From contig CAXWPH010000002.1 in the NCBI GenBank assembly GCA_963666055.2, positions 115,427-179,426 on the forward strand: a stretch of 64,000 bases of DNA. Reading direction: 5' to 3'. A program made the position numbers and the translations under genes. Source of the stretch: Acidobacteriota bacterium (GTDB taxonomy: Bacteria; Acidobacteriota; UBA890; WLXD01). The notes under the pieces were generated by a model. It had not been told where the DNA came from. It was given only the letters and a program-made list of their open reading frames with translations, and made no database searches. Every line of letters starts with the position of its first letter. Within the stretch, counting starts at the first letter, position 1. Below are positions 4,303 through 59,030 of the stretch, in pieces.

Positions 4303-5406
4303 GTGAGCGATCGCATAGGCGCCCTGCAGCAGGCGATTGGTGCCGCCGGTGCCGATCTGGTGGTGCTCAATCCCGGGGCGAGCATGACCTACTTCACCGG
4401 TCATTCGTTCGACTCATATGAGCGACTGTTCTTGCTCTTCGTGCCCGCCGACGGTGAGCCCGGCGCCATCGTGCCGTTGCTCGAGGAGAACAACTGGGCC
4501 AGCTCAGTGCCGGGTGTGAGCCAGGTGTGGCTGTGGGACGACAAGGACGGGCCGCAAGAGGCCGCCGCGGCGGCTTGTGCGCATTTCTCGGACGCTAGAA
4601 CAGTGGCCATCGAGCCTCTGGGCTTGCGCTACATGGAAGTGACGGTGCTGCAGCGGCACCTGCCGACGATAGAGCTGGTCTCGGCCGACGCGGCCATCAA
4701 CTCGTTGCGGCAGTTCAAGGACGCGCACGAGGCGGCGAGTATTCGCACCGCCGCGGAGATTTGCGAGGCTGCGTTGGAGGAAACGATTCACCAAGTACGC
4801 GTTGGCATGACCGAGAAACAGGTGGCCGCCGAGCTCATCGGTCGAATGTTCGGGAAGGGCGGCGAGGGCATCTCGTTCGGCCCGATTGTGCTGGGCGGCC
4901 CCAAGAGCGCGCTGCCGCACGGCGTACCCGATGAGCGGCCATTGGAGGCGGGGGACTTCCTGTTGATCGACTTCGGAACGAGCCATGACGGCTACCATAG
5001 CGACATCACGCGAACTTTCGTTGTGGGCGCCGAACCGAATGATCGCCAGCTCGCCGTCTACGATGCCGTGCGCACCGGCAACGCTGCGGGGTGCGCCTGC
5101 GCCACCGCCGGAGCAACCGCGCACGATGTCCACATGGCGGCGGCCGCTCCGCTGCAAGCGCCTGAATTCGACGACTACTTCAAACACCGTACCGGCCACG
5201 GCTTGGGCGTTGACATTCACGAGCCTCCGTCGGTAATGGAAGGCAACCACGATCCGCTCGGAGCCGGAACGGTGATCACCATCGAGCCGGGTCTGTACAT
5301 GGAAGGCTGGGGAGGAGTTCGCATCGAGGACGACATCTGGGTCACCGACGACGGGCCGGTGAGCCTGACCTCATTCCCACGTGAGCTTCGTACCATCGGT
5401 ACATGA
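4303..5406 (+). CDS. M24-family Xaa-Pro peptidase
   Basis: HRTGHGLGVDIHEPP, GTVITIEPGLY and GGVRIEDD metal-ligand motifs. GTG at 4303 with GAGGAGAG upstream is preferred over TTG at 4279. Confidence 0.85.
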   Translation: MSDRIGALQQAIGAAGADLVVLNPGASMTYFTGHSFDSYERLFLLFVPADGEPGAIVPLLEENNWASSVPGVSQVWLWDDKDGPQEAAAAACAHFSDARTVAIEPLGLRYMEVTVLQRHLPTIELVSADAAINSLRQFKDAHEAASIRTAAEICEAALEETIHQVRVGMTEKQVAAELIGRMFGKGGEGISFGPIVLGGPKSALPHGVPDERPLEAGDFLLIDFGTSHDGYHSDITRTFVVGAEPNDRQLAVYDAVRTGNAAGCACATAGATAHDVHMAAAAPLQAPEFDDYFKHRTGHGLGVDIHEPPSVMEGNHDPLGAGTVITIEPGLYMEGWGGVRIEDDIWVTDDGPVSLTSFPRELRTIGT

Positions 5407-7133: not shown

Positions 7134-8249
7134 TCAGCCCAGGTGAAACCCCGCGGCCGCCGGTCGAACCTCCAGCGGGCTGCCGGGCAGCTCGCCGAAC
7201 GTATCGCTGGTGTTGTATTCGGCCGGCGCAACGTCGTTGGGGGCGTCCGGATGAAACAGGGCGGCGAGGTACTGGATCTGATGACGACCAATCCCCAGCT
7301 CGAACTGTCCTCCACCGTAGATATTTATGCCACGGTGGCGGCAGAAATCGTAGGCGTCGAACAACCGCTGGAGGGTTCCGAAGCGCGAGGGTTTGAAGTT
7401 GATCATGCGTGGCTGATGACGCAGCGATCGGATGTCGTCGACTGAGTGAATCGGAGCGTCCCAGGTCACCCGATCACGGTGTGGCGCGAGCAGCGCGTCA
7501 ATCTCGGGCTCATCGTGTGGATCCTCGATCAGCACGTCGGCCGGTAGCCCGTCCAGCACACGGCGGTAGAGCGCGGCATCGGCCGCCTGGTCGACGGGCG
7601 TTCCATGGTAGGCGCCCTTGAAATCAACCACGCGCACCGCGCCAGTAGTCGCCAACTCGTCGATGAGCTCATCGGTCCAGGCTTCGGTGGCGTCGAGTTT
7701 CAGCTCGAGGCCGGGTTGAGCGGCGAGCAGCTCGCGAAGGCGCGGCATCTTGTCGGGCGTGTCCAAATGCAACGAGGATACGAACCTCAGCGGTCCTGGG
7801 CTGAGCTCGAGACGTCGCGCCAGGCTGACGTCCGCCTGACGCAGCGCCAGGTCGAGCGCGGCGCTCTCGAACGCCCAGCGCCGGTAATCCTCGCTGCCCG
7901 GATAGACGGGCGTTGCTGGGAAGACGGGCAAGGTCTCGAGTAGATCGGACAGCTCACCCAGTGTGCGTCGCCCGCCCAGCGGAAGCGTCAGCCCGGCTTC
8001 CTGGAACGCCAGCTGCTCGCCAGGCTCGTAGTTTGGATCCTCCCCGAGACCCTCGTGTCCGCCGCCGCGCAGGCGCACCACGCTCGTCAGACGCCAGTCG
8101 CTGGTGTGGCCGGAAATCTCGTAGCCCTCGATGTCGATTTTCAGCCCGCTGACTCGTCTCCAGGTGTCCATTCTGGCATCGTAGTCGATGTCGATCGCGC
8201 CCGGGCGCGATAGGATTCCGCTGCCTTCTGACGCTGAGATCGACGGCAA
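7134..8249 (-). CDS. enolase-superfamily-like protein (racemase/lactonizing enzyme type)
   Basis: LELKLDA, VVDFKG, LIEDPH and INFKPSRFG blocks are spaced like the barrel ligands of mandelate racemase/MLE-type enzymes. TTG start is uncertain; ATG at 8171 is the alternative. Confidence 0.55.
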   Translation of the reverse strand: MPSISASEGSGILSRPGAIDIDYDARMDTWRRVSGLKIDIEGYEISGHTSDWRLTSVVRLRGGGHEGLGEDPNYEPGEQLAFQEAGLTLPLGGRRTLGELSDLLETLPVFPATPVYPGSEDYRRWAFESAALDLALRQADVSLARRLELSPGPLRFVSSLHLDTPDKMPRLRELLAAQPGLELKLDATEAWTDELIDELATTGAVRVVDFKGAYHGTPVDQAADAALYRRVLDGLPADVLIEDPHDEPEIDALLAPHRDRVTWDAPIHSVDDIRSLRHQPRMINFKPSRFGTLQRLFDAYDFCRHRGINIYGGGQFELGIGRHQIQYLAALFHPDAPNDVAPAEYNTSDTFGELPGSPLEVRPAAAGFHLG

Positions 8250-8263
8250 CCCCCAGGAGCCTG

Positions 8264-8722
8264 ATGGTGACCGACATGCGTACGCTGTTCCGTAGGGAGC
8301 GGACGTTTATCGGTCTGGTCGGGGCAGTGGCGGTGCTGCGATTCCTGTTGCCGCCCGGCAGGTGGCCGGGCGCGCTCGAGACCTGGCTCGCTATCCTTGG
8401 CCTGTGGCTGCTTGGCTGGGTGCTCGTGGCGACACGTTCTGCGCCTGCGGCCCCCGGTGAGTTCAGCGGCCCGATAGGTGTCCAGAACCTGGCGATCCAG
8501 GCGCTGATCGTGGTACCCGGGATTCTGGTGGGCACAGGTCGAAACTTGGCTTCGATCGAGGTCGCTCCCCCAGCATCCTACCCCGCCAACGCGCTGACGA
8601 CGCTGATCGTCTTGCCTCTCGCAAGCTTGGCCGTGCTCACGTTTGCGGCGCTGCCGCTGGCGATCGCGCTACGCGCGCTAGTGCAGCGATGGCGCCGCCA
8701 GGCGTCGGGGGCCACCGTCTGA
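8264..8722 (+). CDS. hypothetical membrane protein
   Basis: 152 aa with four hydrophobic segments. CAGGAG upstream of the ATG. Confidence 0.5.
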   Translation: MVTDMRTLFRRERTFIGLVGAVAVLRFLLPPGRWPGALETWLAILGLWLLGWVLVATRSAPAAPGEFSGPIGVQNLAIQALIVVPGILVGTGRNLASIEVAPPASYPANALTTLIVLPLASLAVLTFAALPLAIALRALVQRWRRQASGATV

Positions 8723-8738
8723 CATCATTGGCGAGATA

Positions 8739-9509
8739 ATGAAAGCTCGACGCGCGACCATGATGTGGGGGCTCCCCCTGTCGCTCTTGCTGGCGGGCTG
8801 CGGAGAATCGGCCGAACAGCCGGGCGTCGACCCGGTCGCCGCTCTGGCCGCCGATGTTGAGGCCGGTCGACGAATTTACGACGACAACGGCTGTGCCAAC
8901 TGCCACGGCTCGGATGGCAGCGGTCGGGGCCCCAATGCCGCATACATGAACCCGCCGCCGCGCGATTACCGCGATCCGAGGGCGTACAAGGCAGGCATCA
9001 CCGTGGATGCCGTGGCTCGATCGATCGCGACGGGCTTCAGCGAGGGTGGCGCGGCGATGCCAGCTTTCTCACACTTGACCGCGGAGCAGCTTCGACAGCT
9101 GGCCAGCCTCGTCGTTTCGCTGCAGCGGCCCGAAGCCGAGAGCGTCCGGATCGAGGACGCGTGGGTGGCCGAAACACTGCCTGAGACTGATGTGACCGCC
9201 GCGTACATGACGTTGTTGCACGACGCGTCGGAGCCGGATGTCCTCGTTGAGGTCGAGGCCAAGGGGGCGCGTGCGCGAGTGCATGCCACGCGCGCTCAGG
9301 ACGGTATGACCAGGATGGAACCAGTGGAGCGGGTGGAGCTCGATGCCGGTGGCATCGTCGAGCTTGCCCCCGGCGGGCTGCATCTGATGCTGAGCGGCCT
9401 GAGGTCGCCGCTGGTTGCCGGCGACGTGGTCGAGATGACGCTCTTTTTCGAGAGTCATACGGCACGGCGGCTGAGCGTGCCGGTACGCCGGCGTGGTGCA
9501 AAGAACTGA
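8739..9509 (+). CDS. lipoprotein fusing a c-type cytochrome domain to a PCu(A)C copper-chaperone domain
   Basis: LLLAGC lipobox. CANCH haem-binding motif with a downstream Met (AAMPAF). C-terminal half carries AAYMTL..VH..GMTRM..GGLHLMLSGL..GDVVEMTLFF, typical of DUF461/PCuAC. Confidence 0.75.
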   Translation: MKARRATMMWGLPLSLLLAGCGESAEQPGVDPVAALAADVEAGRRIYDDNGCANCHGSDGSGRGPNAAYMNPPPRDYRDPRAYKAGITVDAVARSIATGFSEGGAAMPAFSHLTAEQLRQLASLVVSLQRPEAESVRIEDAWVAETLPETDVTAAYMTLLHDASEPDVLVEVEAKGARARVHATRAQDGMTRMEPVERVELDAGGIVELAPGGLHLMLSGLRSPLVAGDVVEMTLFFESHTARRLSVPVRRRGAKN

Positions 9510-9511
9510 GT

Positions 9512-10564
9512 GTGAACCGTCGGTGGTTGCTCTACGGAGCCTACGGCTACACTGGCCGCCTGATCGCTCGTCTGGCGGCTGAGCGTGGCTTGTCGCCGCT
9601 GCTCGCTGGTAGGGATCCCCGGAAGCTGGAGGCGATGGCGAGCTCGCTGGGCTTGGAGCAGCGCGTATTCCGGCTCGGCAAGCCTGCCGCTATCGCGGAG
9701 GCCCTCGACGGGATGGACGCCGTGGTCAACGCCGCCGGACCGTTCTCGCGCACGTTCTCCAGGATGGTCGACGCCTGCTTGGCGCGCCGATGCCACTACC
9801 TCGACATCACCGGAGAGATCGAGGTTTTCGAGGCCGCCTGGGCACTCGACGAACGCGCCCGCGCAGCAGGCGTGATCCTGCTGCCGGGCGTGGGGTTCGA
9901 TGTCGTACCGACCGACTGTGCTGCGTCGCGCGCCGCGTCGCGGTTGCGCGATCCGACGCATCTTGACATCGCGTTCGTGGCCAGCGGCTCCCCTAGCGCC
10001 GGAACGTTGAAGACGATGCTCGAGGGCTTCGGGCAGCCGGGCAAGGTACGTCGCGACGGCCGCATCGTCGACATAGAGCTGGGGTCGGTGCGACGCCGTG
10101 TCCCGTTCGCTGACCGCGAGCGCGACGCCATGGCGATCCCCTGGGGCGATGTCAGCACCGCATGGCAATCCACCGGTGTTCCCAACGTGCGTGTGTTCCT
10201 GGCCTCTCGGAACAAGCTTCCGGGATGGTCGTCGATACTGCGGCCGTTGCTGCGCATGCCTCCAGCGCGGCGGTTGATGCAGTGGGTCGTGGGGCGGATG
10301 GTCGACGGACCGGGTGTCGAGCAGCTTGCTCGGGGATGGGCGCGTATCTGGTGTGAGGCCCGCAACGCGACCGGCGAGGTTGCCGAGGTCGAGCTGCTCA
10401 CGCCGAACGGGTACGCGCTTACCGCCGACAGCGCCGTGACCGCCGTCGAATCGCTGCTCGCGCCGACCTATGAGGGCCCGCCGTGCGGCGCGTTGACGCC
10501 GTCGTGTGCCTTCGGTGACGACTTCGTCAGCCGTCTGCGCGGGGTCGAGTGGGTAAAGGGCTAG
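9512..10564 (+). CDS. saccharopine dehydrogenase-like NAD(P)-binding oxidoreductase
   Basis: N-terminal LLYGAYGYTGRLIA Rossmann motif, then HYLDITGE and LPGVGFDVVPTD blocks. Confidence 0.8.
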   Translation: MNRRWLLYGAYGYTGRLIARLAAERGLSPLLAGRDPRKLEAMASSLGLEQRVFRLGKPAAIAEALDGMDAVVNAAGPFSRTFSRMVDACLARRCHYLDITGEIEVFEAAWALDERARAAGVILLPGVGFDVVPTDCAASRAASRLRDPTHLDIAFVASGSPSAGTLKTMLEGFGQPGKVRRDGRIVDIELGSVRRRVPFADRERDAMAIPWGDVSTAWQSTGVPNVRVFLASRNKLPGWSSILRPLLRMPPARRLMQWVVGRMVDGPGVEQLARGWARIWCEARNATGEVAEVELLTPNGYALTADSAVTAVESLLAPTYEGPPCGALTPSCAFGDDFVSRLRGVEWVKG

Positions 10565-10603
10565 CAGGCCGTGTCGATCAGGGGTAACGGTGGCGCGTTC
10601 TAA
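10561..10603. repeat. mini copy of the CTAG-bounded repeat between convergent genes
   Basis: CTAGCAGGCCGTG (identical to the unit terminus) ...GGTAACGGTGGCG...CTAA. The TAG at 10562-10564 and the CTA at 10600-10602 are the stop codons of the two flanking genes. Confidence 0.45.
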
Positions 10604-12339
10604 CGAGCCGCCTGCTCTTTAATGATCCACTCGACCAGTTTCGCCACGGCCTTCGAAGTCGCGGCGTCCAGGGCATCGAGGTCGTTGATGTCGTCGACAC
10701 GGATGCGCTCGTCCGTCTCGGCGTCGCGCTGCGTGCTCCGTACCCTGAGGCGGAGATCCATTTCTCGGCGGGGCTCGTCCGCGAGCTCATGCAGCTCGAT
10801 CCAGGCGGTGAAGTCGACCAAGGCCGGGTACCGCGCCAGCGCGATCGTGCGTTGTCGCTCCAGGTGTCGCGCGATGCGACGGTGCACGCTCCGCAGCGCC
10901 AGCTGAGCCGCGAGGTCGGGCACCATCGGCTTGAGAAACTCGATCACTGGCCCCTCGTTCAGGGCAACGAGTCCCTCGGGCGGGCCCGACACGCGGCGTA
11001 GCCGGTCGATGATCTCCTCGGCGGGCACCCCTGCGCGCCGCGCCCGGATGGCGTGATTCCAGGCGGCCGGGTAGTCCAACAGCCGGTACGCGACTTGGGC
11101 GATGCGCGCGTGCAGCTCACCGGAGCCTGGGGTCAGATCAAGCGCCTGCTCGTAGGCCAGGCGCGCCCCTGACCACAGGCCGGCACCCTCGAGCACCCGG
11201 CCGCGACCCAGGTGCGCGGAGCTCAGCTGCGGATCGATGGCGGCGGCCGCCCGGAACATCGACAGGGCGGCCGTCGGGTCATCCGCCAGCAGGCGCGACG
11301 CCTGCCGTAGCGCCGACCGCGCGCCGGCATAGTCCACCGCCGTGCGGAAGACGCCGGGCTGCACCAACGGATCGGCACCGGCAACCTTGACCGCCACGCT
11401 ATGCCAACCTTCCTGTACCGGCGTGGGACCGCGGTAGGCGAGCACGTAGTAGCCGCGCACCAGCGCCAGCACTTTGTCGTAGCCGTCGCGTATGTCACGT
11501 TGCATGACCAACTGCCCGCCGGAGACGCGCGCCAGCTCTCCGAGTTGTTGCTGTAGCTGCTCGATGTAGAAGCGCTCACGCCGGTAGCTGGCGAAATCCC
11601 GTAGAAAGCTGGGCGCCGAGCGGCGGCCGGCCGCCAATCCGACGGCGACCGCGAAGATCGGTGTCTCGGCCTGATGCGTTGCCAGCAGAACGTCGGCGTA
11701 TTGTGCGTTGCCACCGGTGTCTTCGCCGTCGGAGAGCAGCATGATCGCGGCACGTCGGCCAAGGGCCTCGGACGCCGACAGCGGCTCGGTGCAGCTGGCG
11801 TGGCCGGTGGCCGCATCGAGGGGCTCTTCATCTTCGGGCCGCCGCCTCTGCAGACCGCGGTAGGCGGCCTGAATGGCATCGTAGAGGCGTGTCTCCGAAC
11901 CGTAGGGAATGGCGTCGACGATACGTCTCAGCAACGCATCCCGAGGCGATCCCCATCGGCCGGGCCCTACCGCCGAATGGAACGGCATGAGCAGGACACA
12001 GTCGTCGGGCGCCAGGGCGTCGAGAAGCGAGTGAATCGCCTCGCGAGGTCTCGGGTCCGGCCATTCCTGCTCGACGCTCGCGCTGAAGTCCAACACCAGC
12101 GCCAGGTCCAAGGGTGCGTTGCTGGGTGCGAGCACCAACTGAATTTCCTGCTCGATGCCGTCTTCGAAAAGCGCAAAGTCGTCGACCCCGAGACCGGTGA
12201 CGGGCTCACCGTCGTCATCGAGTACCGCCACCTTGATGCGCGTCAGGTAGACAGCGGTGCGGTAGCTGTGCTGGTCCTGCGCGTCGAGCCGACCGCAGAC
12301 CATCGCCACCAATGCCAGCAGCGCGAGCGTACGAACCAT
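10600..12339 (-). CDS. VWFA-domain protein with C-terminal TPR repeats (Acidobacterial VWFA-related type), secreted
   Basis: Signal peptide MVRTLALLALVAMVCG. The pattern VAVLDDDGEPVTGLGVDDFALFEDG..LDLALVLDFSASV is characteristic of the VWFA-related Acidobacterial domain. TPR-like helices at the C-terminus. Confidence 0.85.
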   Translation of the reverse strand: MVRTLALLALVAMVCGRLDAQDQHSYRTAVYLTRIKVAVLDDDGEPVTGLGVDDFALFEDGIEQEIQLVLAPSNAPLDLALVLDFSASVEQEWPDPRPREAIHSLLDALAPDDCVLLMPFHSAVGPGRWGSPRDALLRRIVDAIPYGSETRLYDAIQAAYRGLQRRRPEDEEPLDAATGHASCTEPLSASEALGRRAAIMLLSDGEDTGGNAQYADVLLATHQAETPIFAVAVGLAAGRRSAPSFLRDFASYRRERFYIEQLQQQLGELARVSGGQLVMQRDIRDGYDKVLALVRGYYVLAYRGPTPVQEGWHSVAVKVAGADPLVQPGVFRTAVDYAGARSALRQASRLLADDPTAALSMFRAAAAIDPQLSSAHLGRGRVLEGAGLWSGARLAYEQALDLTPGSGELHARIAQVAYRLLDYPAAWNHAIRARRAGVPAEEIIDRLRRVSGPPEGLVALNEGPVIEFLKPMVPDLAAQLALRSVHRRIARHLERQRTIALARYPALVDFTAWIELHELADEPRREMDLRLRVRSTQRDAETDERIRVDDINDLDALDAATSKAVAKLVEWIIKEQAAR

Positions 12340-12718: not shown

Positions 12719-13180
12719 ATGATCAACAAGCGGCCTGGAGGAGCGTCTTTCGCGTGGGGCACACGGTCGAGCACCGCGCCCCTTGGGCGCGGCTGTGCAA
12801 GCTCGGCCACCCCTGTCCGACAACTGCGGACGACGCTGGTGTTGGTCGTTGCGGCTGTGGCGTGGTCTTGGCTACTTTCTCGAAAGGCACCAGGAGCCAG
12901 TAGTGCCAACCGCCGAGACTACGGCGAGTTCTTGCAGGAAATGCTGGCGTTCCACTCCGCGGACATGGCGCTTGCCTTCGGCGGAGGCGGGCTGAACCGG
13001 GTGCCGGTGGTCAGCGTTGGCTCGTGGAATGAAGAATGGGAAGGGCATGCAGTGATGCCGTCCCGGTTCAATTCCACACTTTCGCCGCGCACGCAGCAGG
13101 GATTCGACTACGTGCTGGCGATCAAGCAGGCCTTCGGCTGGAACCACTACGCCGAGAAGAGCGCGCAACTGTCGTACTAG
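12719..13180 (+). CDS. hypothetical membrane-anchored protein
   Basis: 153 aa. GAGG lies 6 nt upstream of the ATG. One TM segment (TTLVLVVAAVAWSWLL). The C-terminal half looks protein-like (GSWNEEWEGHAVMPSRF..YVLAIKQAFGWNHYAEK). By eye, third-position GC is lower than in neighbouring genes. Confidence 0.5.
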   Translation: MINKRPGGASFAWGTRSSTAPLGRGCASSATPVRQLRTTLVLVVAAVAWSWLLSRKAPGASSANRRDYGEFLQEMLAFHSADMALAFGGGGLNRVPVVSVGSWNEEWEGHAVMPSRFNSTLSPRTQQGFDYVLAIKQAFGWNHYAEKSAQLSY

Positions 13181-13194
13181 TGGCCGGCCACTAG
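13177..13194. repeat. perfect 18-bp palindrome CTAGTGGCCGGCCACTAG
   Basis: Seen directly. Its first TAG (13178-13180) is the stop codon of the preceding ORF. The termini resemble CTAG(CA)GGCCG of the repeat family. Confidence 0.5.
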
Positions 13195-23563: not shown

Positions 23564-23616
23564 CTAGCAGGCGATGGTGGAAGTCGGCCCACTACACTTC
23601 CACCGCGGCCTTCTAA
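23564..23616. repeat. mini hairpin copy of the CTAG-bounded repeat
   Basis: CTAGCAGGCgaTGGTGGAAGT, 11 nt, ACTTCCACCgcGGCCttCTAA. GGTGGAAGT/ACTTCCACC are perfect complements. The termini match the family terminus CTAGCAGGCCGTGGTGAAAGT. Confidence 0.5.
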
Positions 23617-23695
23617 CCGATCGCCCGGCGCGCTTGACGGGACAATGGAGCCTGTATTAAACGATGTTTAGTAAATCAGGAGAGGCGCGATCCCA

Positions 23696-29754: not shown

Positions 29755-30567
29755 ATGAGCGTCGAATCGGTGCTGATTCCAGAGTTGGAGGGTGTCGACG
29801 GGCTAGTGTTCGACCTGGAGGGGACCCTGTACGTGGGGGACCGTCCGGTGGCCGGCGCCGCCGCATCGATTGCCACGCTGCGCGCCCGCGGCATGCCGCT
29901 GCGCTTCCTTACCAACACCACTACGTGCGCTCATGAGGCGCTGACCGTCAAGCTCGAGGGCATGGGATTCGAGGTGTCCGGCGACGAGGTGTTCTGTGCC
30001 CCCACCGTCGCCGGCCGTTTCCTGCGAGAGAACGACGCGAGCGCCTGGCTACTCGTGTCGCCGGCTGCGCTGCCGGACTTCGATGGTGTGCGCACCGACC
30101 CCGACAATCCCGACTACGTGGTGGTGGGCGATCTGGGCGATGACTGGACGTTCGAGCTGCTGAACCGCGCCTTCGTCCTGGTGCGTGAGCGTGGCGCACG
30201 CCTCATCGGATTGGTACGAAGCCGATACTGGCTGTCGGCAGATGGCGCGCGACTCGACGTGGGGCCGTTCGTCGTAGCGCTGGAGTACGCCACGGGGCGG
30301 TCAGCCACGATCTTCGGCAAGCCGGAGCGCGCCATCTTCGAGACCGTGCTTCGCACGATGGGGCTACCGGCAGGATCGGTCGCCATGGTCGGCGACGATC
30401 CGATCACCGATGCCGCCGCCGCCGCGGCGGTCGGGATGCGCACCGTGCTGGTACGTACCGGCAAGTATCGGGAAGGGGCCGAGGACCCGAGTGAGTCGGT
30501 CGGCGACGCCCCTGGTAACGCCGACGTGGTGGTCGACTCGGTGGCCGACCTGATCGTCTCCGGCTAG
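29755..30567 (+). CDS. HAD-superfamily subfamily IIA hydrolase
   Basis: VFDLEGTLYVG, LRFLTNTTT and MVGDDPITD motifs. Confidence 0.85.
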   Translation: MSVESVLIPELEGVDGLVFDLEGTLYVGDRPVAGAAASIATLRARGMPLRFLTNTTTCAHEALTVKLEGMGFEVSGDEVFCAPTVAGRFLRENDASAWLLVSPAALPDFDGVRTDPDNPDYVVVGDLGDDWTFELLNRAFVLVRERGARLIGLVRSRYWLSADGARLDVGPFVVALEYATGRSATIFGKPERAIFETVLRTMGLPAGSVAMVGDDPITDAAAAAAVGMRTVLVRTGKYREGAEDPSESVGDAPGNADVVVDSVADLIVSG

Positions 30568-30843
30568 CAGGCCGTGGTGAAAGTGTGGTGGGTCTGGTTA
30601 CGGCGAGTTGGGGCCAGATGCAAGGCGGCCTGACACAGGCGATGCCCTAGCCATCGTCGAGAAAGGCCAACACCGCAGATGGCCCCAAATCGCCGTAACC
30701 CTTCGGGCGACACGGGGTTGCGCGCGTATGCTGCGTCGTTCCTCGTCAACGATGGGGTAACCATCGCCTACCTCCTCTCTCTTTGCCTCCACTTCGCAAG
30801 ACCCTGTCGCCAGACCCACCACACTTTCACCACGGCCTGCTAG
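30564..30843. repeat. 280-bp composite palindromic element (two inverted 87-bp-type units, perfect 34-bp terminal inverted repeats)
   Basis: 30564-30597 is the exact reverse complement of 30810-30843 (checked base by base). Unit 1 is 30564-30650. Unit 2 is inverted, at 30647-30843, with ~105 bp of extra sequence. Confidence 0.75.
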
Positions 30844-30845
30844 CG

Positions 30846-31523
30846 TCAGCTCGTCTGTGGCGCCTTCAGAGCTGCCTTGCGGTTCCGGTAAAGCTGCTGG
30901 TCCACGACCGCAGCCATCGCCTCGGCGTCCAGCCCGTACTCGAGGAATTCATCGATCACGCCAACAAACCTGGCTGGATCCTCGAGCGCGTCCTTGTAGT
31001 GCACCTCGATCATCTGGAAGTTGGGGCGATCGCGCACCAGGAACTGGACCTGCACCAGATGTCGCAGGAAGAACTGTTTCGTTTGCAGATCGTCGAGCGG
31101 ATTGTCTTCGGCGCGCCGCTCGAGCATCTTGTTCTGCGATGCCACGACCTCGTCGAGGTCGCGACGCATGAAGATCACCTTGTAGAAGTGCTCCGCCGGC
31201 AAGTCTTTGAGCAAGTGCGAGATGACCTTCAAGACCTTGCCGCGCGCCTCGCCGACCCACGACTTATCGGTCTCGCTTTCGAGGTCCTTGACGCGCTCGT
31301 GCTCGTAGTAGCCCTTGGGGTTGTCGACATCGGCGGCGCGCTCGTTGTCCGTGAGGATGGGCAGTCCGGCGGCATCGAGCATGCGCATCATCATCGAGGT
31401 GCCGGAACGCGGTAGCCCGGACACGATGATTACCTCGTCGCCGTACTTGCGACGGCGGAGAGCTCTCTTGAGCGAAGTCAGCAAGGGAATCTCTCGGCAC
31501 GCAGGAGTGGATGATCGGGTCAT
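30846..31523 (-). CDS. sulfotransferase-family protein
   Basis: IIVSGLPRSGTSMMMRML is a PAPS 5'-phosphosulfate-binding loop. FMRRDLDEVVASQ resembles the 3'-phosphate motif. Start set at ATG 31523; uncertain. Confidence 0.75.
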   Translation of the reverse strand: MTRSSTPACREIPLLTSLKRALRRRKYGDEVIIVSGLPRSGTSMMMRMLDAAGLPILTDNERAADVDNPKGYYEHERVKDLESETDKSWVGEARGKVLKVISHLLKDLPAEHFYKVIFMRRDLDEVVASQNKMLERRAEDNPLDDLQTKQFFLRHLVQVQFLVRDRPNFQMIEVHYKDALEDPARFVGVIDEFLEYGLDAEAMAAVVDQQLYRNRKAALKAPQTS

Positions 31524-31623
31524 TGTAGCAAGGCGACCACTCTGGCCCTTGCGGCGCCGGCGCCCATCTTTCGCGGTGGCGGGGCACGTCAGGGACCGCA
31601 TCGTTACGTGTACACTGCGGCCT

Positions 31624-32808: not shown

Positions 32809-33585
32809 GTGGGCCCGTCGCCGACCGGGACGCTGCTGGTGGCGTTGTGCTGCAGCGCCAGCGCCACACAGGCGACGCTGTCCATCGAGTACATCGCTCA
32901 CGCCAGCTTCTTGATCGAGTCGCCGGGTGGCGCCCGCATCCTGGTGGATCCGTTCGCCAGCCGTGTGTGGATCGGCTACGACTTTCCCGAGGGCCTGCAT
33001 CCCGACGCGGTCGTGATCACCCATCCGCACTATGATCACGATGCCGGGCGGTTCCGTGGCTCGCCGTTCCCGTGGCCTGAGGCGCGCATCTTCGACGCCC
33101 CCGGCGAGTTCATGGTCGACGACGTTCGCGTGATCGGGCTGCGCGGAAAGCACGCCGATCCGTACGGCGAGGAGTTCGGCCAGCGCAACACGATCTGGGT
33201 GATCGAGACGGCCGGTCTCCGAATCGCACACATCGGCGACAACGGCCCGCTGACACGCGACAACGTTCGCGATCTCGGCACCATCGACATTCTCATGTTG
33301 CCGATCGATGCCCAGTACCACATCCTGGCGCGCGAGGAGGCCGCCGCGCTCGTTACGGCGGTGCAACCACGGCACCTGGTACCGATGCACTATCGGCTGC
33401 CGGAGCTGGAGCCGGACCCCGACTCGCCCGCTGACCTCGGCACCATCGACCCCTGGCTGCAGGGCCGCGCCGGAGTTGTGCGGCTCGGTTCCCACCGGTG
33501 GCAGGTGGGGCTCGACACGCTGCTCCCGGCCGGCAGCACGGTCGTCTTCGAGCCTTCGCCGCGGGTGGCGCGGCCAGCGCGCTAG
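32809..33585 (+). CDS. MBL-fold metallo-hydrolase, secreted
   Basis: Signal peptide. ITHPHYDHD metal motif, then IAHIGDNG. Confidence 0.85.
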   Translation: MGPSPTGTLLVALCCSASATQATLSIEYIAHASFLIESPGGARILVDPFASRVWIGYDFPEGLHPDAVVITHPHYDHDAGRFRGSPFPWPEARIFDAPGEFMVDDVRVIGLRGKHADPYGEEFGQRNTIWVIETAGLRIAHIGDNGPLTRDNVRDLGTIDILMLPIDAQYHILAREEAAALVTAVQPRHLVPMHYRLPELEPDPDSPADLGTIDPWLQGRAGVVRLGSHRWQVGLDTLLPAGSTVVFEPSPRVARPAR

Positions 33586-33668
33586 GGCATCGCCAGCGTC
33601 AGGCCGCCTTGCATCTAACCCCAGCTCGCCGAAACCAGGCCCGTCACACTTCCGCCACGGCCTGCTAG
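33582..33668. repeat. 87-bp CTAG-bounded palindromic unit (inverted orientation relative to 30564-30650)
   Basis: 76 of 87 positions identical to the reverse complement of 30564-30650 (hand alignment). Both terminal CTAGs contain the stop codons of the convergent flanking genes. Confidence 0.75.
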
Positions 33669-34396
33669 GGGTCGGAGTCGAACGGTGCTCCCAGTGCTGC
33701 CGCGAACGCGCGGATGCGGGCCGCGTTCGCTCCCAGATCACTGCGGCCGACGCGCGACGTCGAGCGTACGTCAACTACCGACCCCGACGAGACCGGGCGG
33801 ACGCGCACGACGAAATCCTCTACGAAGGCAAAAACACTCGATACCGCATAGGCCTCGATGTGGCCGTCGGCACGGTTACTGAAGGCAATGGTAAGGCCGA
33901 TCTCCTCCGCTGCCCGAATGGCGGCCGCGTGAGCCGCGCCGGGGTCGAGGTCGAGCTCGATGGGTCGCAAGTCGGGATAAGCGCGTCGTTGCTCGACGAT
34001 GACCTCGGCGCCGCCCTGCGGATAGGTCAAGTCGCGGCTCGCGTTATCGTCGTGGTCGAGGGCGACACGGTATGCGGGCGCATCGTCGGGTGACGTGGTG
34101 ATGTCGTGAATCGGCGGCGCGTTCATCTGCAGGCGGGCGGCCACCAGCGCAATGATCAGCACTGTGCCGCCGAAGAGTCCGCGTCGGCCTGCCGCCGGCG
34201 ACCGCGAATCCTTTCGTGCCCGGCGCCACGCCAGCAGGCCGAGGGCGATGCTGAGCAGGCCCCCCAGGGCCCAAGTCAGCACGAAGACTCCGAACCCGCT
34301 TAGCGGCCTGGCGGCGCCGACATGGATTGCTGCTACTGCGCCCCCCATGATGCCGACGGTAACGATGGGGGAGTATGCTGCACTCCGCATCAACAT
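33665..34396 (-). CDS. DUF1499-family membrane protein
   Basis: Three N-terminal TM helices, then PPIHDITT....SRVGRSDLGANAARIRAF, typical of DUF1499. Confidence 0.7.
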   Translation of the reverse strand: MLMRSAAYSPIVTVGIMGGAVAAIHVGAARPLSGFGVFVLTWALGGLLSIALGLLAWRRARKDSRSPAAGRRGLFGGTVLIIALVAARLQMNAPPIHDITTSPDDAPAYRVALDHDDNASRDLTYPQGGAEVIVEQRRAYPDLRPIELDLDPGAAHAAAIRAAEEIGLTIAFSNRADGHIEAYAVSSVFAFVEDFVVRVRPVSSGSVVDVRSTSRVGRSDLGANAARIRAFAAALGAPFDSDP

Positions 34397-54388: not shown

Positions 54389-55753
54389 TCAGACGCTCCT
54401 GCGGCCGTAGCCCCCGAACACCGCCATCAGCACGATCGACAGCAGCAGCCACGAGTGCAGGTTGGCCATGCCGACTTGCATGGCACCCAGTCGCGGCATC
54501 CCGGTTGCCGAACCGGAAGCGGTCAGCGAAGCGGCGAGAATGGTAGGGATGAACCATGGGAGCAGAAACGGGTAGGTGCATACGGTGGTGTCGAGCAGGT
54601 TGGCACGGCGCGTCGGTCCGACGCCGAGTTGCTCGCCGGTCTGGCGGGCGAACGCTCCCACCGCCAGAATCGCGACGACGGAATGTGTGGTCAGCATGAC
54701 GGCGCCGGACACCGCTGCGAAGATCCAGACCTCTGCGCCGCGCTCCGATCGCACCGATCGACGCGTTGTACGCACCAGGCGATCGAGCAAACCGCTGGCC
54801 TCGATACCGGCTACCAGTCCCATCAACAGCAGCGTGAAGATCGAGATGCCGAGGGCTCGTTCGATGCCTTCTACGACCAGCCCGCGTGCCGCGAAGGCTC
54901 CAGGCTCGATTCGAAGTACGTCGCTTGGCTGGATCAACCCTCCGATCCAGCCTACCGCCAACGCTACGGCGATCCCCGCCAGCAAGCCCTCCACCAGATG
55001 GTGCCGCCGTAGCAGCATGACGAACACGAGAGCCGGAGCGACGAGCAACGCCAGCGGCGCGGCACTGCCGGTGGCCTCCGACGTGATCGGGAGACTGTCG
55101 CCGCCGCCGAGTACCGTGTACCCGAGCAGCGCGATCCCGGCGGCGGGAAGGGCGTAGCGCAAGCGTGACCGCACCACCTCGCCGATCGGCGCTCCCTGTG
55201 TGGTGGCCGAGGCGATGGTCGTATCGGAGACGGGAGAGATGTTGTCGCCGAATGTCGCACCGCCGATGATCGCGCCGGCGAGGATCACAGGGTCGGTTCC
55301 CAGCGCCGCTCCGGCCGGGTAGAGCACCGGAAGACACAAGATCAACGTCCCCAGGCTGGTACCCGTCGAGGCGGAGAACAGGCAGCAGACGAGAAACGCT
55401 GCCGCCGCATAGCCACCGCCGTGCAGCCCACTCGCCTGCGCTGCCCCAGCGAGCGCGTTTACCAAGCCGCCGCCGGTGAGCAGTGCGCCGAGGATTCCGG
55501 CGAGCATCCACGCCATCAGCATGAGCATGACGATCGGTTGGCTCATCCCGCGCAGCAACGTGTTGCAATACCGCTCGCGGTCGCGGGCCAGCAGCAGAGC
55601 CACCAGAATGGCGGCGATCAGCACTGGCCACAGGCCGCGCTCATCCGGTGCTCCGGAGAGCCCCAGCCAGGTGACACCGGCGATGAACATTACGAACGGC
55701 GCCAGCGCTGCGGCACTGCCGCCGAAGAACCCGAGTGGACGCGCTTCTTGCAT
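54389..55753 (-). CDS. Na+/H+ antiporter NhaC-family transporter
   Basis: 454 aa, about 11-12 TM. GGATFGDNISPVSDTTI motif. Confidence 0.8.
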   Translation of the reverse strand: MQEARPLGFFGGSAAALAPFVMFIAGVTWLGLSGAPDERGLWPVLIAAILVALLLARDRERYCNTLLRGMSQPIVMLMLMAWMLAGILGALLTGGGLVNALAGAAQASGLHGGGYAAAAFLVCCLFSASTGTSLGTLILCLPVLYPAGAALGTDPVILAGAIIGGATFGDNISPVSDTTIASATTQGAPIGEVVRSRLRYALPAAGIALLGYTVLGGGDSLPITSEATGSAAPLALLVAPALVFVMLLRRHHLVEGLLAGIAVALAVGWIGGLIQPSDVLRIEPGAFAARGLVVEGIERALGISIFTLLLMGLVAGIEASGLLDRLVRTTRRSVRSERGAEVWIFAAVSGAVMLTTHSVVAILAVGAFARQTGEQLGVGPTRRANLLDTTVCTYPFLLPWFIPTILAASLTASGSATGMPRLGAMQVGMANLHSWLLLSIVLMAVFGGYGRRSV

Positions 55754-55768
55754 CTACGCTCCCGGCAG

Positions 55769-55805
55769 CGTAACCAGACCCATCAGAATTCCCGGTGGCC
55801 TGCCA
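55769..55805. repeat. degenerate half copy of the CTAG-bounded repeat
   Basis: GTAACCAGACCCAtCAgaattcccggtGGCCTGCcAG versus the unit sequence GTAACCAGACCCAcCAcactttcaccacGGCCTGCtAG (13-nt identical run plus matching terminus). Confidence 0.35.
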
Positions 55806-57338: not shown

Positions 57339-58094
57339 ATGAACGGCGACATCAGAGTGGTCACGTTCGACGCTCGCGGCACGCTCTTGAAGGTGCGATT
57401 CTCGGTCGGCGAGACGTACAGCGCTGTGGCCAGGCGGCACGGCGCTGACCTGTCGACCACTGCGATCGAGGCGGCGTTCTTTGCGGTGTTTCCCAGCATG
57501 CCGCCGCTGGCCTTCCCACCCATGCACGATGAGCAGCTGCGCGAGCGTGAGCATCAGTGGTGGCGGACTCTGGTGGAGCGGGTCGTCGAATCCGCCGATC
57601 AGCAGGTCGACGACTTCGACGAGTTCTTCGCCGAGCTGTATTCGCTATACCGTGGCGCCGAGGGTTGGAAGCCATATCGTGAGGCGGCATCAGTGCTGTG
57701 CTTGCTGCGCTCGGCCGGCTACAAGCTGGGCGTCGTGTCCAACTTCGACTCGCGCATCGAGGATGTGTTGTTGGCGCTGAACATGAGCATCTGGTTCGAC
57801 TCGGTGGTGTTCTCCTCGCGCGCCGGTGTCGCCAAGCCGGGTGTCGGGATCTTCCGGCGGGCTCTGGCCGAGCTCGATGTAAAGGCGGAGCACGCGTTGC
57901 ATGTCGGCGACAGCCTCCGTAAGGACTGGGAAGGCGCCCGCAACGTCGGAATGAAGGCCATCCTGCTCGATCGCACCGCTCGTTACGCCGCCAACACGCC
58001 CTCGGATTGCGATGTGGTCCCCAGCCTCGAGGCAGTGCTCGAACGCCTCGGCGTGGCTGGCTTTTCCGAGTTGGCGCGCGCCCACGCCAGCTAG
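57339..58094 (+). CDS. HAD-superfamily hydrolase (subfamily IA)
   Basis: VVTFDARGTLL motif I, VVSNFD motif II and HVGDSLRKD motif IV. Confidence 0.85.
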   Translation: MNGDIRVVTFDARGTLLKVRFSVGETYSAVARRHGADLSTTAIEAAFFAVFPSMPPLAFPPMHDEQLREREHQWWRTLVERVVESADQQVDDFDEFFAELYSLYRGAEGWKPYREAASVLCLLRSAGYKLGVVSNFDSRIEDVLLALNMSIWFDSVVFSSRAGVAKPGVGIFRRALAELDVKAEHALHVGDSLRKDWEGARNVGMKAILLDRTARYAANTPSDCDVVPSLEAVLERLGVAGFSELARAHAS

Positions 58095-58107
58095 CAGGCC
58101 GTGGTGG
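58091..58107. repeat. terminal remnant of the CTAG-bounded repeat
   Basis: CTAGCAGGCCGTGGTGG: the first 16 nt are identical to the family terminus. Its TAG (58092-58094) is the HAD stop codon. The convergent gene stops at 58110. Confidence 0.4.
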
Positions 58108-58109
58108 CT

Positions 58110-59030
58110 TCAGTCCCCGATGTCGTCTGACACGAGGGCGATCTGGTCACCCATCGGACTTACTGCCAGCCGCGTGATCGAGCTTATCCCCGCCGTCGAT
58201 AGATCCGCCGCCAGCGTCCAGGTGTCGTCCCGGAACGGGTCGCGCACGAACACCCGCGAGTCGGTAGCCATCAGCATGCGGCCGTCCGGAGTCCACGCCA
58301 GGTCCTGGCTCCCCGGCAAGGCGTCGACGAGCTCGAACACCGCTCCGTTGATTGGGTTCACCAGTCGGATCGCCCAGTGGTCGCCATCACGCTGCAGGAA
58401 GCTGAAGAAGTCAGGGTCGTGGCGCGCCTGCAGCGATCGGCCGATGTCCTGCGCCACCGTCGTGGTGGTATCCGTGCGGAGGTCGGCCAGCTGCAACGTC
58501 GGCGGCTCGCCGAGGATGAACAGAATCAACGAACCGTACCGGTTCCAGGAGTGGTAGCCGACCGGGGCAACGTCGGGGAGCAGCAGTCGCGGCGAGGTGC
58601 CGTCGCGACGGAATGTCCACAGTCGTTGAGTCCCGTCCGACTCGACTCGTACAACCGACATGTCTTCGTTGGCCGGCCATACGACGCTGGGCGAGTATTC
58701 CGACTCGGGGGTGGCGGTGATTTGTGTGTGCTCTCCCGACGACAGATCCACCCGGAAGATGTCGGTCTGCTCGCCGCGTTGCGACGTGTACAACAGGCCG
58801 TCGCCCTCGGGCTCGAAGTGGGGTTGGTTGTCGTAGCCCGGGCGGTTGGTGAGGTTGCGCGGAGCACCCAAGGTTGGCGGGCTCGACGCAAGATCCAGAT
58901 CGACGAGAAAGATATCGGTTCCCGGCGCCGCCTGCCTGGAACCCGGGACGGCTGCTGACAGCGTCGCGACACCCGCCAGCAGAATTATCAGCCTCGAGGC
59001 AACGGTCTGCAAAGCTTTCCTCCCGCGCAT
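58110..59030 (-). CDS. TolB-like/WD40-like beta-propeller protein, secreted
   Basis: Start set at ATG 59030 (MRGRKALQTVASRLIILLAGVATLSAAV). NRPGYDNQPHFEPEGDGLLYTS and ITATPESEYSPS blades. Confidence 0.7.
   Translation of the reverse strand: MRGRKALQTVASRLIILLAGVATLSAAVPGSRQAAPGTDIFLVDLDLASSPPTLGAPRNLTNRPGYDNQPHFEPEGDGLLYTSQRGEQTDIFRVDLSSGEHTQITATPESEYSPSVVWPANEDMSVVRVESDGTQRLWTFRRDGTSPRLLLPDVAPVGYHSWNRYGSLILFILGEPPTLQLADLRTDTTTTVAQDIGRSLQARHDPDFFSFLQRDGDHWAIRLVNPINGAVFELVDALPGSQDLAWTPDGRMLMATDSRVFVRDPFRDDTWTLAADLSTAGISSITRLAVSPMGDQIALVSDDIGD

Follow-up and report, generated by a model that had tools for sequence, protein, structure and literature searches.

Why a 280-bp palindromic element should lie exactly upon the stop codon of a gene is the question raised by a 64,000-nucleotide stretch of contig CAXWPH010000002.1 (GenBank assembly GCA_963666055.2, Acidobacteriota), hereafter the window. 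Here, a HAD-IIA hydrolase gene and a convergent sulfotransferase gene are separated by the element, which has perfect 34-bp inverted termini, each including a CTAG. An earlier note, made from the sequence alone, had divided the element into two units sharing a central CTAG and had compared it either with REP/BIME mosaics or with a MITE (miniature inverted-repeat transposable element) duplicating CTAG. Our analysis identifies the 280-bp element as the full-length form of an uncatalogued miniature transposon family of soil Acidobacteriota. The copy in the window is very probably a complete non-autonomous DNA transposon (MITE) of these uncultured bacteria, and the best overall explanation, which we consider probable, is a MITE family moved by a TA-duplicating enzyme of the IS630/Tc1-mariner type, with the stop codon being regenerated upon insertion.

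The 280-bp element and its family

The element has the layout T-A-B-T′, i.e., a left terminus (T), two internal hairpins (A and B), and a right terminus (T′) (Table 1). T′ is the exact reverse complement of T, as reported in the earlier note, and in the window copy the inverted repeat reaches 48 nt at 88% identity; A and the reverse complement of B are 56% identical. The central CTAG noticed previously is present and sits in the loop of the first internal hairpin. At ≤3 mismatches the T pattern had two matches in the window and none in 100 dinucleotide-preserving shuffles, and the 280-bp unit was recovered both from long-read metagenome-assembled genomes (MAGs) and from short-read metagenome contigs of independent projects. 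Both observations refute a chance palindrome or an assembly artifact, an explanation to which we attach virtually no probability.

The internal minus-strand open reading frames (ORFs) of the window copy have a third-position GC content (GC3) of 0.61 to 0.67 compared to 0.81 to 0.86 in the neighboring genes, give no Pfam match, and have their frames interrupted in divergent copies. They are therefore not genes, in agreement with the view taken of them before. A 66-aa minus-strand ORF with a Shine-Dalgarno-like GGAGG followed by ATG was rejected as a coding candidate on the same grounds, being unconserved in the divergent subfamilies, low in GC3, and devoid of a Pfam match.

When one genome of each prokaryotic species was scanned with a 22-nt T pattern, at least 87 loci were detected, spread over at least 15 species-level MAGs that nearly all carry the label Acidobacteriota. 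Loci in the DNA sampled outside the window (~0.9 Mb in total, around ~140 termini) are referred to by L-numbered labels. At many of them, plus and minus T matches lie ~280 bp apart, and the aligned unit, of 279 to 288 bp in these loci, is conserved from end to end in either orientation, with flanks that are unrelated from the first base beyond the CTAGs. A search of the sampled DNA with nhmmer identified ~20 full-length copies and many partial ones; across all sampled DNA there were 44 paired elements, including 29 independent copies of 276 to 288 bp with unrelated flanks. A metagenome scan for T followed by a purine, which was aimed at contexts other than MITEs, i.e., insertion sequences (ISs), yielded instead another subfamily of 280 bp, the third, along with several truncated copies. 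The expectation that the element belongs to an abundant family with further copies elsewhere is thus confirmed. Its absence from catalogues is also supported: no match to the element was found in plasmid and phage collections, the Rfam search of the window plus four loci gave nothing at the gathering score (best subthreshold E value of 0.92, to miRNA models, at E ≤ 10), and the terminus sequence gave only chance matches in the searchable literature.

Because a discrete unit conserved over its whole length recurs at many loci, the 280-bp form is the master form, and the shorter forms, including the 87- to 88-nt unit, are deletion derivatives of it. The previous reading, two 87-bp units with an insertion, did not hold: the 87-nt form is truncated, consisting of T plus the 5′ half of hairpin A, and the ~105 bp that had been taken for extra sequence represents hairpin B, a part of each full-length copy, and interrupts nothing. 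Solitary 87-nt forms occur at 33581 to 33668 in the window, with similar ones at L016, L062, and L048. The other derivatives comprise T-A-T′ (172 bp; L073), T-B-T′ (L082 and L075), bare T-T′ hairpins (positions 23564 to 23616 of the window, L078, L008, and L045), and remnants of 32 to 66 bp that often end in GGCCTGCTAG. The derivative junctions show short direct repeats, e.g., GGCC or GGYCTG, which indicates microhomology-mediated deletion.

Two more complex arrangements were observed. At L062 (2588 to 2952) and L048 (5040 to 5401), an 87-nt T plus half-A unit is joined to a full-length element via a common CTAG, no remainder of the first element being found downstream; this could reflect an insertion nested in the loop CTAG with a subsequent deletion, or else recombination. 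At L079 (1282 to 2652), inward-facing T termini and CTAGs enclose a 1.37-kb segment with one host gene (tandem RidA/YjgF-like, as judged by eye), which could be either a composite of a MITE pair with a passenger gene or two independent relics.

Insertion site, target duplication, and stop codons

HAD orthologues were reached by homology search, an exact-protein look-up of the window HAD gene having given no match, and their contigs were compared at the HAD/sulfotransferase junction. In L091 to L093 (84% amino acid identity to the window HAD), the two genes are 2 bp apart and there is no element. The junction reads ...GCGGCTAGCGTCAGCC..., and the empty site GGCTAGCGTCAGC equals the window flanks plus a single CTAG, compared to CTAG-276 bp-CTAG in the window. 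In the closest relative (L088 to L090; 95% identity, contig CBDBHB010000009.1), only the remnant GGCCTGCTAG is found at the insertion site. Here, between positions 4770 and 5026 (window 30540 to 30850), a deletion between GGCC microhomologies took the element together with the last seven HAD codons and the stop, the ORF therefore now being 341 aa long and running into the antisense of the sulfotransferase gene. The site is thus empty, filled, or scarred among relatives, i.e., it shows the behavior expected of a mobile element. The noncoding nature and size of the unit (280 bp, below ~500 bp), its terminal inverted repeats (TIRs), the dispersed copies, and the target duplication seen by comparing the empty and filled sites are all those of a MITE. 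That part of the earlier proposal which invoked a MITE inserting at CTAG is accordingly upheld, with one CTAG at the orthologous empty site and many copies having unrelated flanks.

Very short remnants (ATAG-CCTGC-TAG, GTAGCCGGCCCGGCTTCTAG) were also seen at orthologous insertion sites of L094 (~7590 to 7605 and ~4805 to 4830). These may be excision footprints rather than deletion relics.

The empty site is compatible with duplication of either the 4-bp CTAG or a TA, with the element proper then being G...C, and the flanks of paired copies were therefore used to discriminate. In 43 of the 44 paired copies, the element body is bordered by a G on its left and a C on its right, but only 29 have C and G as the outermost bases. 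Ten copies have TA on both sides but a differing outer base (ATAG...CTAG, TTAG...CTAA, CTAG...CTAT, and others), and none of the 15 copies that do not have CTAG at both ends carries identical tetranucleotides on the two sides. The metagenome subfamily was found by a pattern without the tetranucleotide and is hence unbiased for flanks. In this subfamily, the outer base was noncanonical in 7/20, compared to an overall divergence of 6% (p = 1e-4), with TA intact at 17/20 ends and the inner G/C at 20/20. As inferred from these flank patterns and the empty site, the element conforms to the TA duplication at an NTAN target that characterizes IS630/Tc1-mariner. IS630 is reported to favor the TA of a CTAG (Tenzen and Ohtsubo 1991, cited in PMC2170065). 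TA duplication with ends G...C, the IS630/Tc1-mariner signature, is thus favored, though not proven, over duplication of the 4-bp CTAG by the sequence evidence, and on balance we regard the element as probably IS630-like.

The alternative version of the earlier note, an IS5-type MITE that duplicates a 4-bp CTAG/YTAR, appears unlikely. It would account for the single CTAG of the empty site becoming two in the filled site and for the main subfamily, all of whose sampled ends are CTAG; it also has a precedent in MITEPsy1, a relative of ISPsy2 that duplicates CTAG or YTAA (PMC3189936). However, the identical 4-bp YTAR direct repeats characteristic of such elements were never seen where an end is not CTAG (0/15), and the base adjoining the body is G/C (43/44) whatever the outer base. 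A 4-bp duplication of ATAG or CTAA would put an A beside the element at one end, and no such case was encountered. A TA duplication is therefore the more likely of the two.

With TA duplicated and ends G...C, both junctions read TAG towards the element. The junction TAG being rebuilt, a TAG or TAA stop that has been struck would survive, and convergent genes meeting on one CTAG would both keep their stops. The ORF coordinates bear out both stops at the window locus as first described, that of the HAD gene at the left junction and that of the sulfotransferase gene just beyond the right CTAG (Table 1). Among 101 termini, 48% close an open frame of ≥100 codons by the junction TAG, versus 20% and 10% in two control frames, and of 22 paired elements, 16 border directly on the end of an ORF at one or both sides (6 of them at both). 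By comparison, an open frame of ≥100 codons ends on one or both strands at 21 of the window's 53 other CTAG sites, and on both strands at 5 of them. CTAG is ~3.4-fold underrepresented in this window of 65.5% GC (59 observed versus ~200 expected from base composition). Anchoring on stop codons is thus explained by target choice combined with harmlessness at stops and the loss of intragenic insertions through purging. The elements showed no preferred orientation with respect to the flanking genes (14 versus 10).

The truncated copy at 33581 to 33668 likewise lies exactly between the stops of two convergent genes, i.e., an MBL-fold gene (32809 to 33585, plus strand; TAG at 33583 to 33585) and an ORF at 33665 to 34396 (minus strand). 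The latter was identified, by its matching position and length in orthologous loci, as a putative DUF1499 gene.

Conjointly, these data suggest the following scenario. A transposase acting in trans, most likely a DDE enzyme of the IS630/Tc1-mariner type, would bind the conserved 34-bp termini and insert the element at a TA dinucleotide, by preference inside CTAG, duplicating the TA. Where this TA belonged to a TAG or TAA stop, the insertion would recreate TAG for the gene running into the element. As TA/CTAG would be rare inside the genes of a 65% GC genome and intragenic insertions would be purged, copies would pile up at gene ends, most of all where convergent genes have one CTAG in common.

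Several points weigh against this scenario. The main subfamily has CTAG at every sampled end, and a pattern that itself contained CTAG had served to ascertain one end of each copy. The choice between TA and CTAG comes from flank statistics, and selection for TAG stops could keep the inner three bases while the outer C drifts. The likeness of GCAGG...AAGT to mariner ends is a putative one. As to the enzyme, no transposase with T ends was found in the ~0.9 Mb of sampled DNA, nor any autonomous element, since every T...T′ pair 0.4 to 4 kb apart in the sampled loci encloses host genes. Finally, the core described in the next section shows strong covariation and invariant loop boxes, unexpected for the core of a junk MITE, and the role we assign to it is conjecture.

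Structure of the core and the sister family

Either strand of the element folds as a Y-shaped three-way junction formed by the T/T′ stem and hairpins A and B, with a z-score of -13 for the plus strand under DNA parameters and of -11 for the minus strand under RNA parameters. The RNAalifold consensus was evaluated on 27 copies, drawn from three T subfamilies and aligned by MAFFT without reference to structure. Under this consensus, 97.5% of the cells were paired, and 33 of the 88 pairs (213 cells) had changed on both sides, values reached in 0 of 500 shuffles; when the partners were slid by 1 to 3 columns as a control, at most 9 double-change pairs were obtained. The hairpin stems thus covary strongly. 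Most of the covariation falls on the stems of hairpin A and on the basal stem of B. The T stem, by contrast, stays mostly unchanged, like several internal-loop motifs (GATGCAAGGCG and AACGCCGCAG), and the apical boxes hardly vary (GGCGATG...CATCGYC in A and CGATG...CATCGCC in B). Between subfamilies, the termini are 94 to 100% identical while the cores are only 69 to 81% identical. The termini are thus kept as sequence, as would be a transposase-binding site, and the core as a structure with a small number of sequence boxes.

Nothing in the data points to a single functional RNA strand. Mismatches are symmetric (25 G·U versus 29 A·C over the 77 pairs that the two strands' folds have in common), orientation shows no preference, and a scan of the element found no promoter-like or terminator-like signal and no U-tract terminator. 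A requirement in cis is probable for the covarying hairpins and their invariant boxes, whose action might be at the DNA level, in transposase or host-factor binding or in end synapsis, or at the RNA level, as a stable 3′ structure for read-through from either side.

The core is not exclusive to elements with T ends. A sister family has the same A/B architecture and a homologous core (~70% identical) with an unrelated 34-bp terminus, T2 (CTAGTGRCCTGTAACAGATGATCGTTGCATATCG) (Table 1). One locus (L049, 88 to 362) is a T/T2 chimera, and in L044 a fragment of the T family is nested within a T2 element.

An IS of the IS110 family (precomputed Pfam annotation, DEDD_Tnp_IS110 plus Transposase_20) was observed exactly between CTAG and the T2 body at at least two and possibly three loci (Table 1). 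It has subterminal inverted repeats, ATGAGAAGGCC/GGCCTTCTCAT, is missing from the corresponding site in L090 (7580), and appears to target the T2 terminus site-specifically.

With its covarying stems and near-invariant boxes, its likeness on both strands, and its presence in both the T and the T2 families, the A-B double hairpin may tentatively be viewed as a functional module in its own right. Possibilities are a bidirectional RNA 3′ end or insulator for convergent genes, or a platform to which a host protein or a transposase would bind. If so, the element would be a mobile "gene-end cassette" that, upon insertion, rebuilds the stop codon and brings a 3′ structure with it.

A stronger version of this idea, in which the element is primarily a structured RNA/DNA module selected by the host (a bidirectional 3′-end stabilizer, terminator, or insulator) and transposition is secondary, is unlikely in our view. 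It would explain the strong covariation and near-invariant loop and apical boxes in spite of cores with only 69 to 81% identity, the presence of the core in the sister family and in the T/T2 chimera, a quasi-twofold symmetry that gives similar transcripts from either side, and the location at gene 3′ ends, as well as the T relic kept at a matching site in genomes that are only ~67% identical. Against a host module of this kind stand the lack of a U-tract terminator, promoter signal, or Rfam match, the free decay of copies by deletion and their presence or absence between close relatives, and the indifferent orientation.

The window contains two clear copies, one short hairpin, four to five relics, and one sister-family relic (Table 1), fewer than the "at least ten related loci" previously counted. 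The short hairpin at 23564 to 23616 has a T relic at the matching position of the syntenic locus L041 (~67% nucleotide identity). Adjoining the T relic, an AT-rich motif, GTATTAAACGATGTTTAGTAAATC, was observed in this 65% GC genome (window 23617 to 23690; L041, ~20 to 95). This operator-like motif, located in a divergent promoter region, is kept between genomes in which the flanking genes are only ~67% identical.

Table 1. Features of the element, its relatives in the window, and sister-family loci
Feature	Position	Strand	Remarks
Full-length element, including both junction CTAGs	30564..30843	+	Evidence: inverted ends, copies, empty site, flank statistics
Element proper under the favored TA model (G...C)	30567-30840		TA duplicates at 30565-30566 and 30841-30842
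Left terminus T	30564..30597	+	34-bp terminal inverted repeat, CTAGCAGGCCGTGGTGAAAGTGTGGTGGGTCTGG
Right terminus T′	30810..30843	-	Exact reverse complement of T
Hairpin A (~105 nt)	30596..30700	+	Covarying stems GGTTACGGCGAGTTGGGGCC / GGCCCCAAATCGCCGTAACC plus an inner 4- to 5-bp stem
Hairpin A apical box, near-invariant	30638-30644 and 30652-30658		GGCGATG...CATCGTC; loop between them with central CTAG at 30647-30650
Linker (6 nt)	30701..30706	+	CTTCGG, at the three-way junction
Hairpin B (~104 nt)	30707..30810	+	Diverged inverted version of A; covarying basal stem GCGACACGGGGTTGCG / CGCAAGACCCTGTCGC
Hairpin B apical box, near-invariant			ACGATGG...CCATCGCC
HAD-IIA hydrolase gene	29755..30567	+	TAG stop at 30565-30567 = left junction (duplicated TA plus first G of the element)
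Sulfotransferase gene	30846..31601	-	Convergent with HAD; stop 2 nt outside the right CTAG
Truncated copy	33581..33668	-	T plus 5′ half of hairpin A, up to the loop CTAG; 87-88 nt, 87-88% identical to "unit 1" of the earlier note
Short T-T′ hairpin relic	23564..23616	+	21-bp stem; divergent intergenic region
Degenerate relic	55746..55803	-	T plus start of hairpin A, like the divergent subfamily
Relic	58091..58150	+	First 16 nt of T exact, then a degenerate hairpin-A-like fragment
Probable deletion relic	10561..10625	+	CTAGCAGGCCGTG ... GCCGCCTGCTC
Possible relics	12345; 22202		22202 weak
18-bp palindrome at a gene end	13177..13194	.	CTAGTGGCCGGCCACTAG; read as a minimal relic of the sister family (terminus T2)
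Sister-family (T2) members	L078 5013-5290; L044 7695-8000; L090 7580-7790
IS110-family IS sites	L088 ~7581-8990; L089; L044 ~7690		At least two, possibly three loci

Mobilizing enzyme, known relatives, and implications

The sampled loci were searched for a Y1, RAYT, or TIRYT gene by a motif scan and by tblastn with seven RAYT/TIRYT queries from the supplement of PMC3733652, with negative results over the ~0.9 Mb. As RAYTs are single copy, this is weak evidence. A TIRYT profile search of a set of 5.8 billion proteins gave >8,000 homologues, with none on carrier contigs among the 120 matches listed. The statement of the earlier note that the window lacks a transposase stands for Y1/RAYT-type genes (motif scan and tblastn), the only types searched. 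The interiors of the T pairs of L079 (1.37 kb), L037 (2.2 kb), L010, and L077 were considered as candidates for an autonomous parent and were rejected, as all contain host genes (from inspection of the translations by eye, RidA-like, peroxiredoxin/YbaK-like, dGTPase-like, and permease).

These searches bear on another explanation, which we consider rather unlikely, namely that the elements are REP/REPIN/BIME-like and move as single-stranded DNA by a Y1 HUH transposase (RAYT or TIRYT), with CTAG as the cleavage tetranucleotide and the hairpins as recognition structures. Consistent with it, T has a tetranucleotide head in front of a small palindrome (CAGGCC...GGYCTG), the elements are built as modular mosaics, and the hairpins covary without strand bias, as DNA hairpins would. 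The targeting of the sister family's terminus by an IS110-family IS fits as well, since IS110-family elements target REPs in Pseudomonas too. Tyrosine transposases with long TIRs on either side ("TIRYT") form a sharply defined group in Acidobacteria, some with repeated TIR families, and REP termini frequently supply TAG stops (Di Nocera et al. 2013; PMC3733652). However, the outer flank bases vary at both ends (TTAG...CTAA), whereas an element-encoded cleavage site should be constant at one of them, and the 34-bp termini are conserved as sequence (94 to 100%) rather than as structure. TA (or CTAG) is, moreover, duplicated at the insertion site, and IS200/IS605-type transposition is not known to make a duplication. 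The absence of a Y1 gene around the ~140 termini points, if weakly, in the same direction.

Compared with REP/REPIN/BIME and TIRtrons, the present family has in common the abundance of extragenic palindromes, a conserved terminal tetranucleotide, mosaic arrangements, and termini that supply TAG. It differs in that its head is the palindromic CTAG, not GTAG or CGTC, its termini are long and sequence conserved, the target is duplicated, and no Y1 gene was found. A REP/REPIN is a 20- to 40-nt imperfect palindrome with an unpaired GTAG/CGTC head; here the head is CTAG, the stem in T is 6 bp, and the unit is 280 bp. The REP/BIME resemblance suggested by the earlier note is therefore one of architecture only; no RAYT-like gene was found in the sampled loci, and the termini are conserved as sequence, not as a short palindrome.

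Among eukaryotic elements, Stowaway MITEs are derivatives of Tc1/mariner, with TA duplication and strong fold-back. The title of one paper on them refers to microhomology-mediated deletion in their origin and decay (PMC3814204). The present element would be like Stowaway in its TA duplication, fold-back, and microhomology-associated decay, and unlike it in that Stowaway is eukaryotic and has no stop-codon logic.

Closer parallels exist in bacteria. RUP, which is thought to be mobilized in trans by the IS630-family transposase of IS630-Spn1 (PMC2229807), is similarly noncoding, has TIRs, and inserts at TA. With a length of 107 bp, TIRs of 9 bp, and no conserved internal structure reported for it, RUP is nevertheless unlike the 280-bp element with its 34-bp TIRs and two covarying hairpins, for which we found no parent IS and no sequence similarity to RUP. 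The Correia/NEMIS elements of Neisseria and the ERIC/IRU elements of enterobacteria also have TIRs with TA at the termini and are intergenic. These elements are cotranscribed with adjacent genes, and the long stem-loops of their transcripts are substrates of RNase III or RNase E, affecting mRNA stability (PMC2229807). They are, however, single fold-back hairpins of 100 to 155 bp from Proteobacteria, in contrast to a Y-shaped three-way junction with a constrained core that lies systematically on stop codons in another phylum. MITEPsy1, an IS5-derived element of Pseudomonas syringae, inserts at CTAG like the present one (PMC3189936); it is 100 nt long with 18-nt TIRs and duplicates 4 bp, which the flanks examined here do not fit. 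In sum, the element resembles TA-flanked bacterial MITEs in its working, yet by sequence it is no member of RUP, Correia/NEMIS, or ERIC. Its size, the great length and strict conservation of its termini, and a clearly constrained core common to two families with different ends set it apart from typical MITEs.

With this work, a repeat family that is abundant in a major, poorly studied soil phylum, and that shapes gene ends there, is named and dissected. The family will confound gene calling and assembly, and offers many polymorphic markers for the population genomics of Acidobacteriota. The constraint on the hairpins is the most interesting part of the finding: a covarying core common to two families provides a tractable case in which to ask whether MITE interiors are selected, and whether for the element or for the host. 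For the anchoring on stop codons, a simple mechanistic reason is offered, TA insertion plus a terminal G giving TAG, which may extend to other GC-rich genomes.

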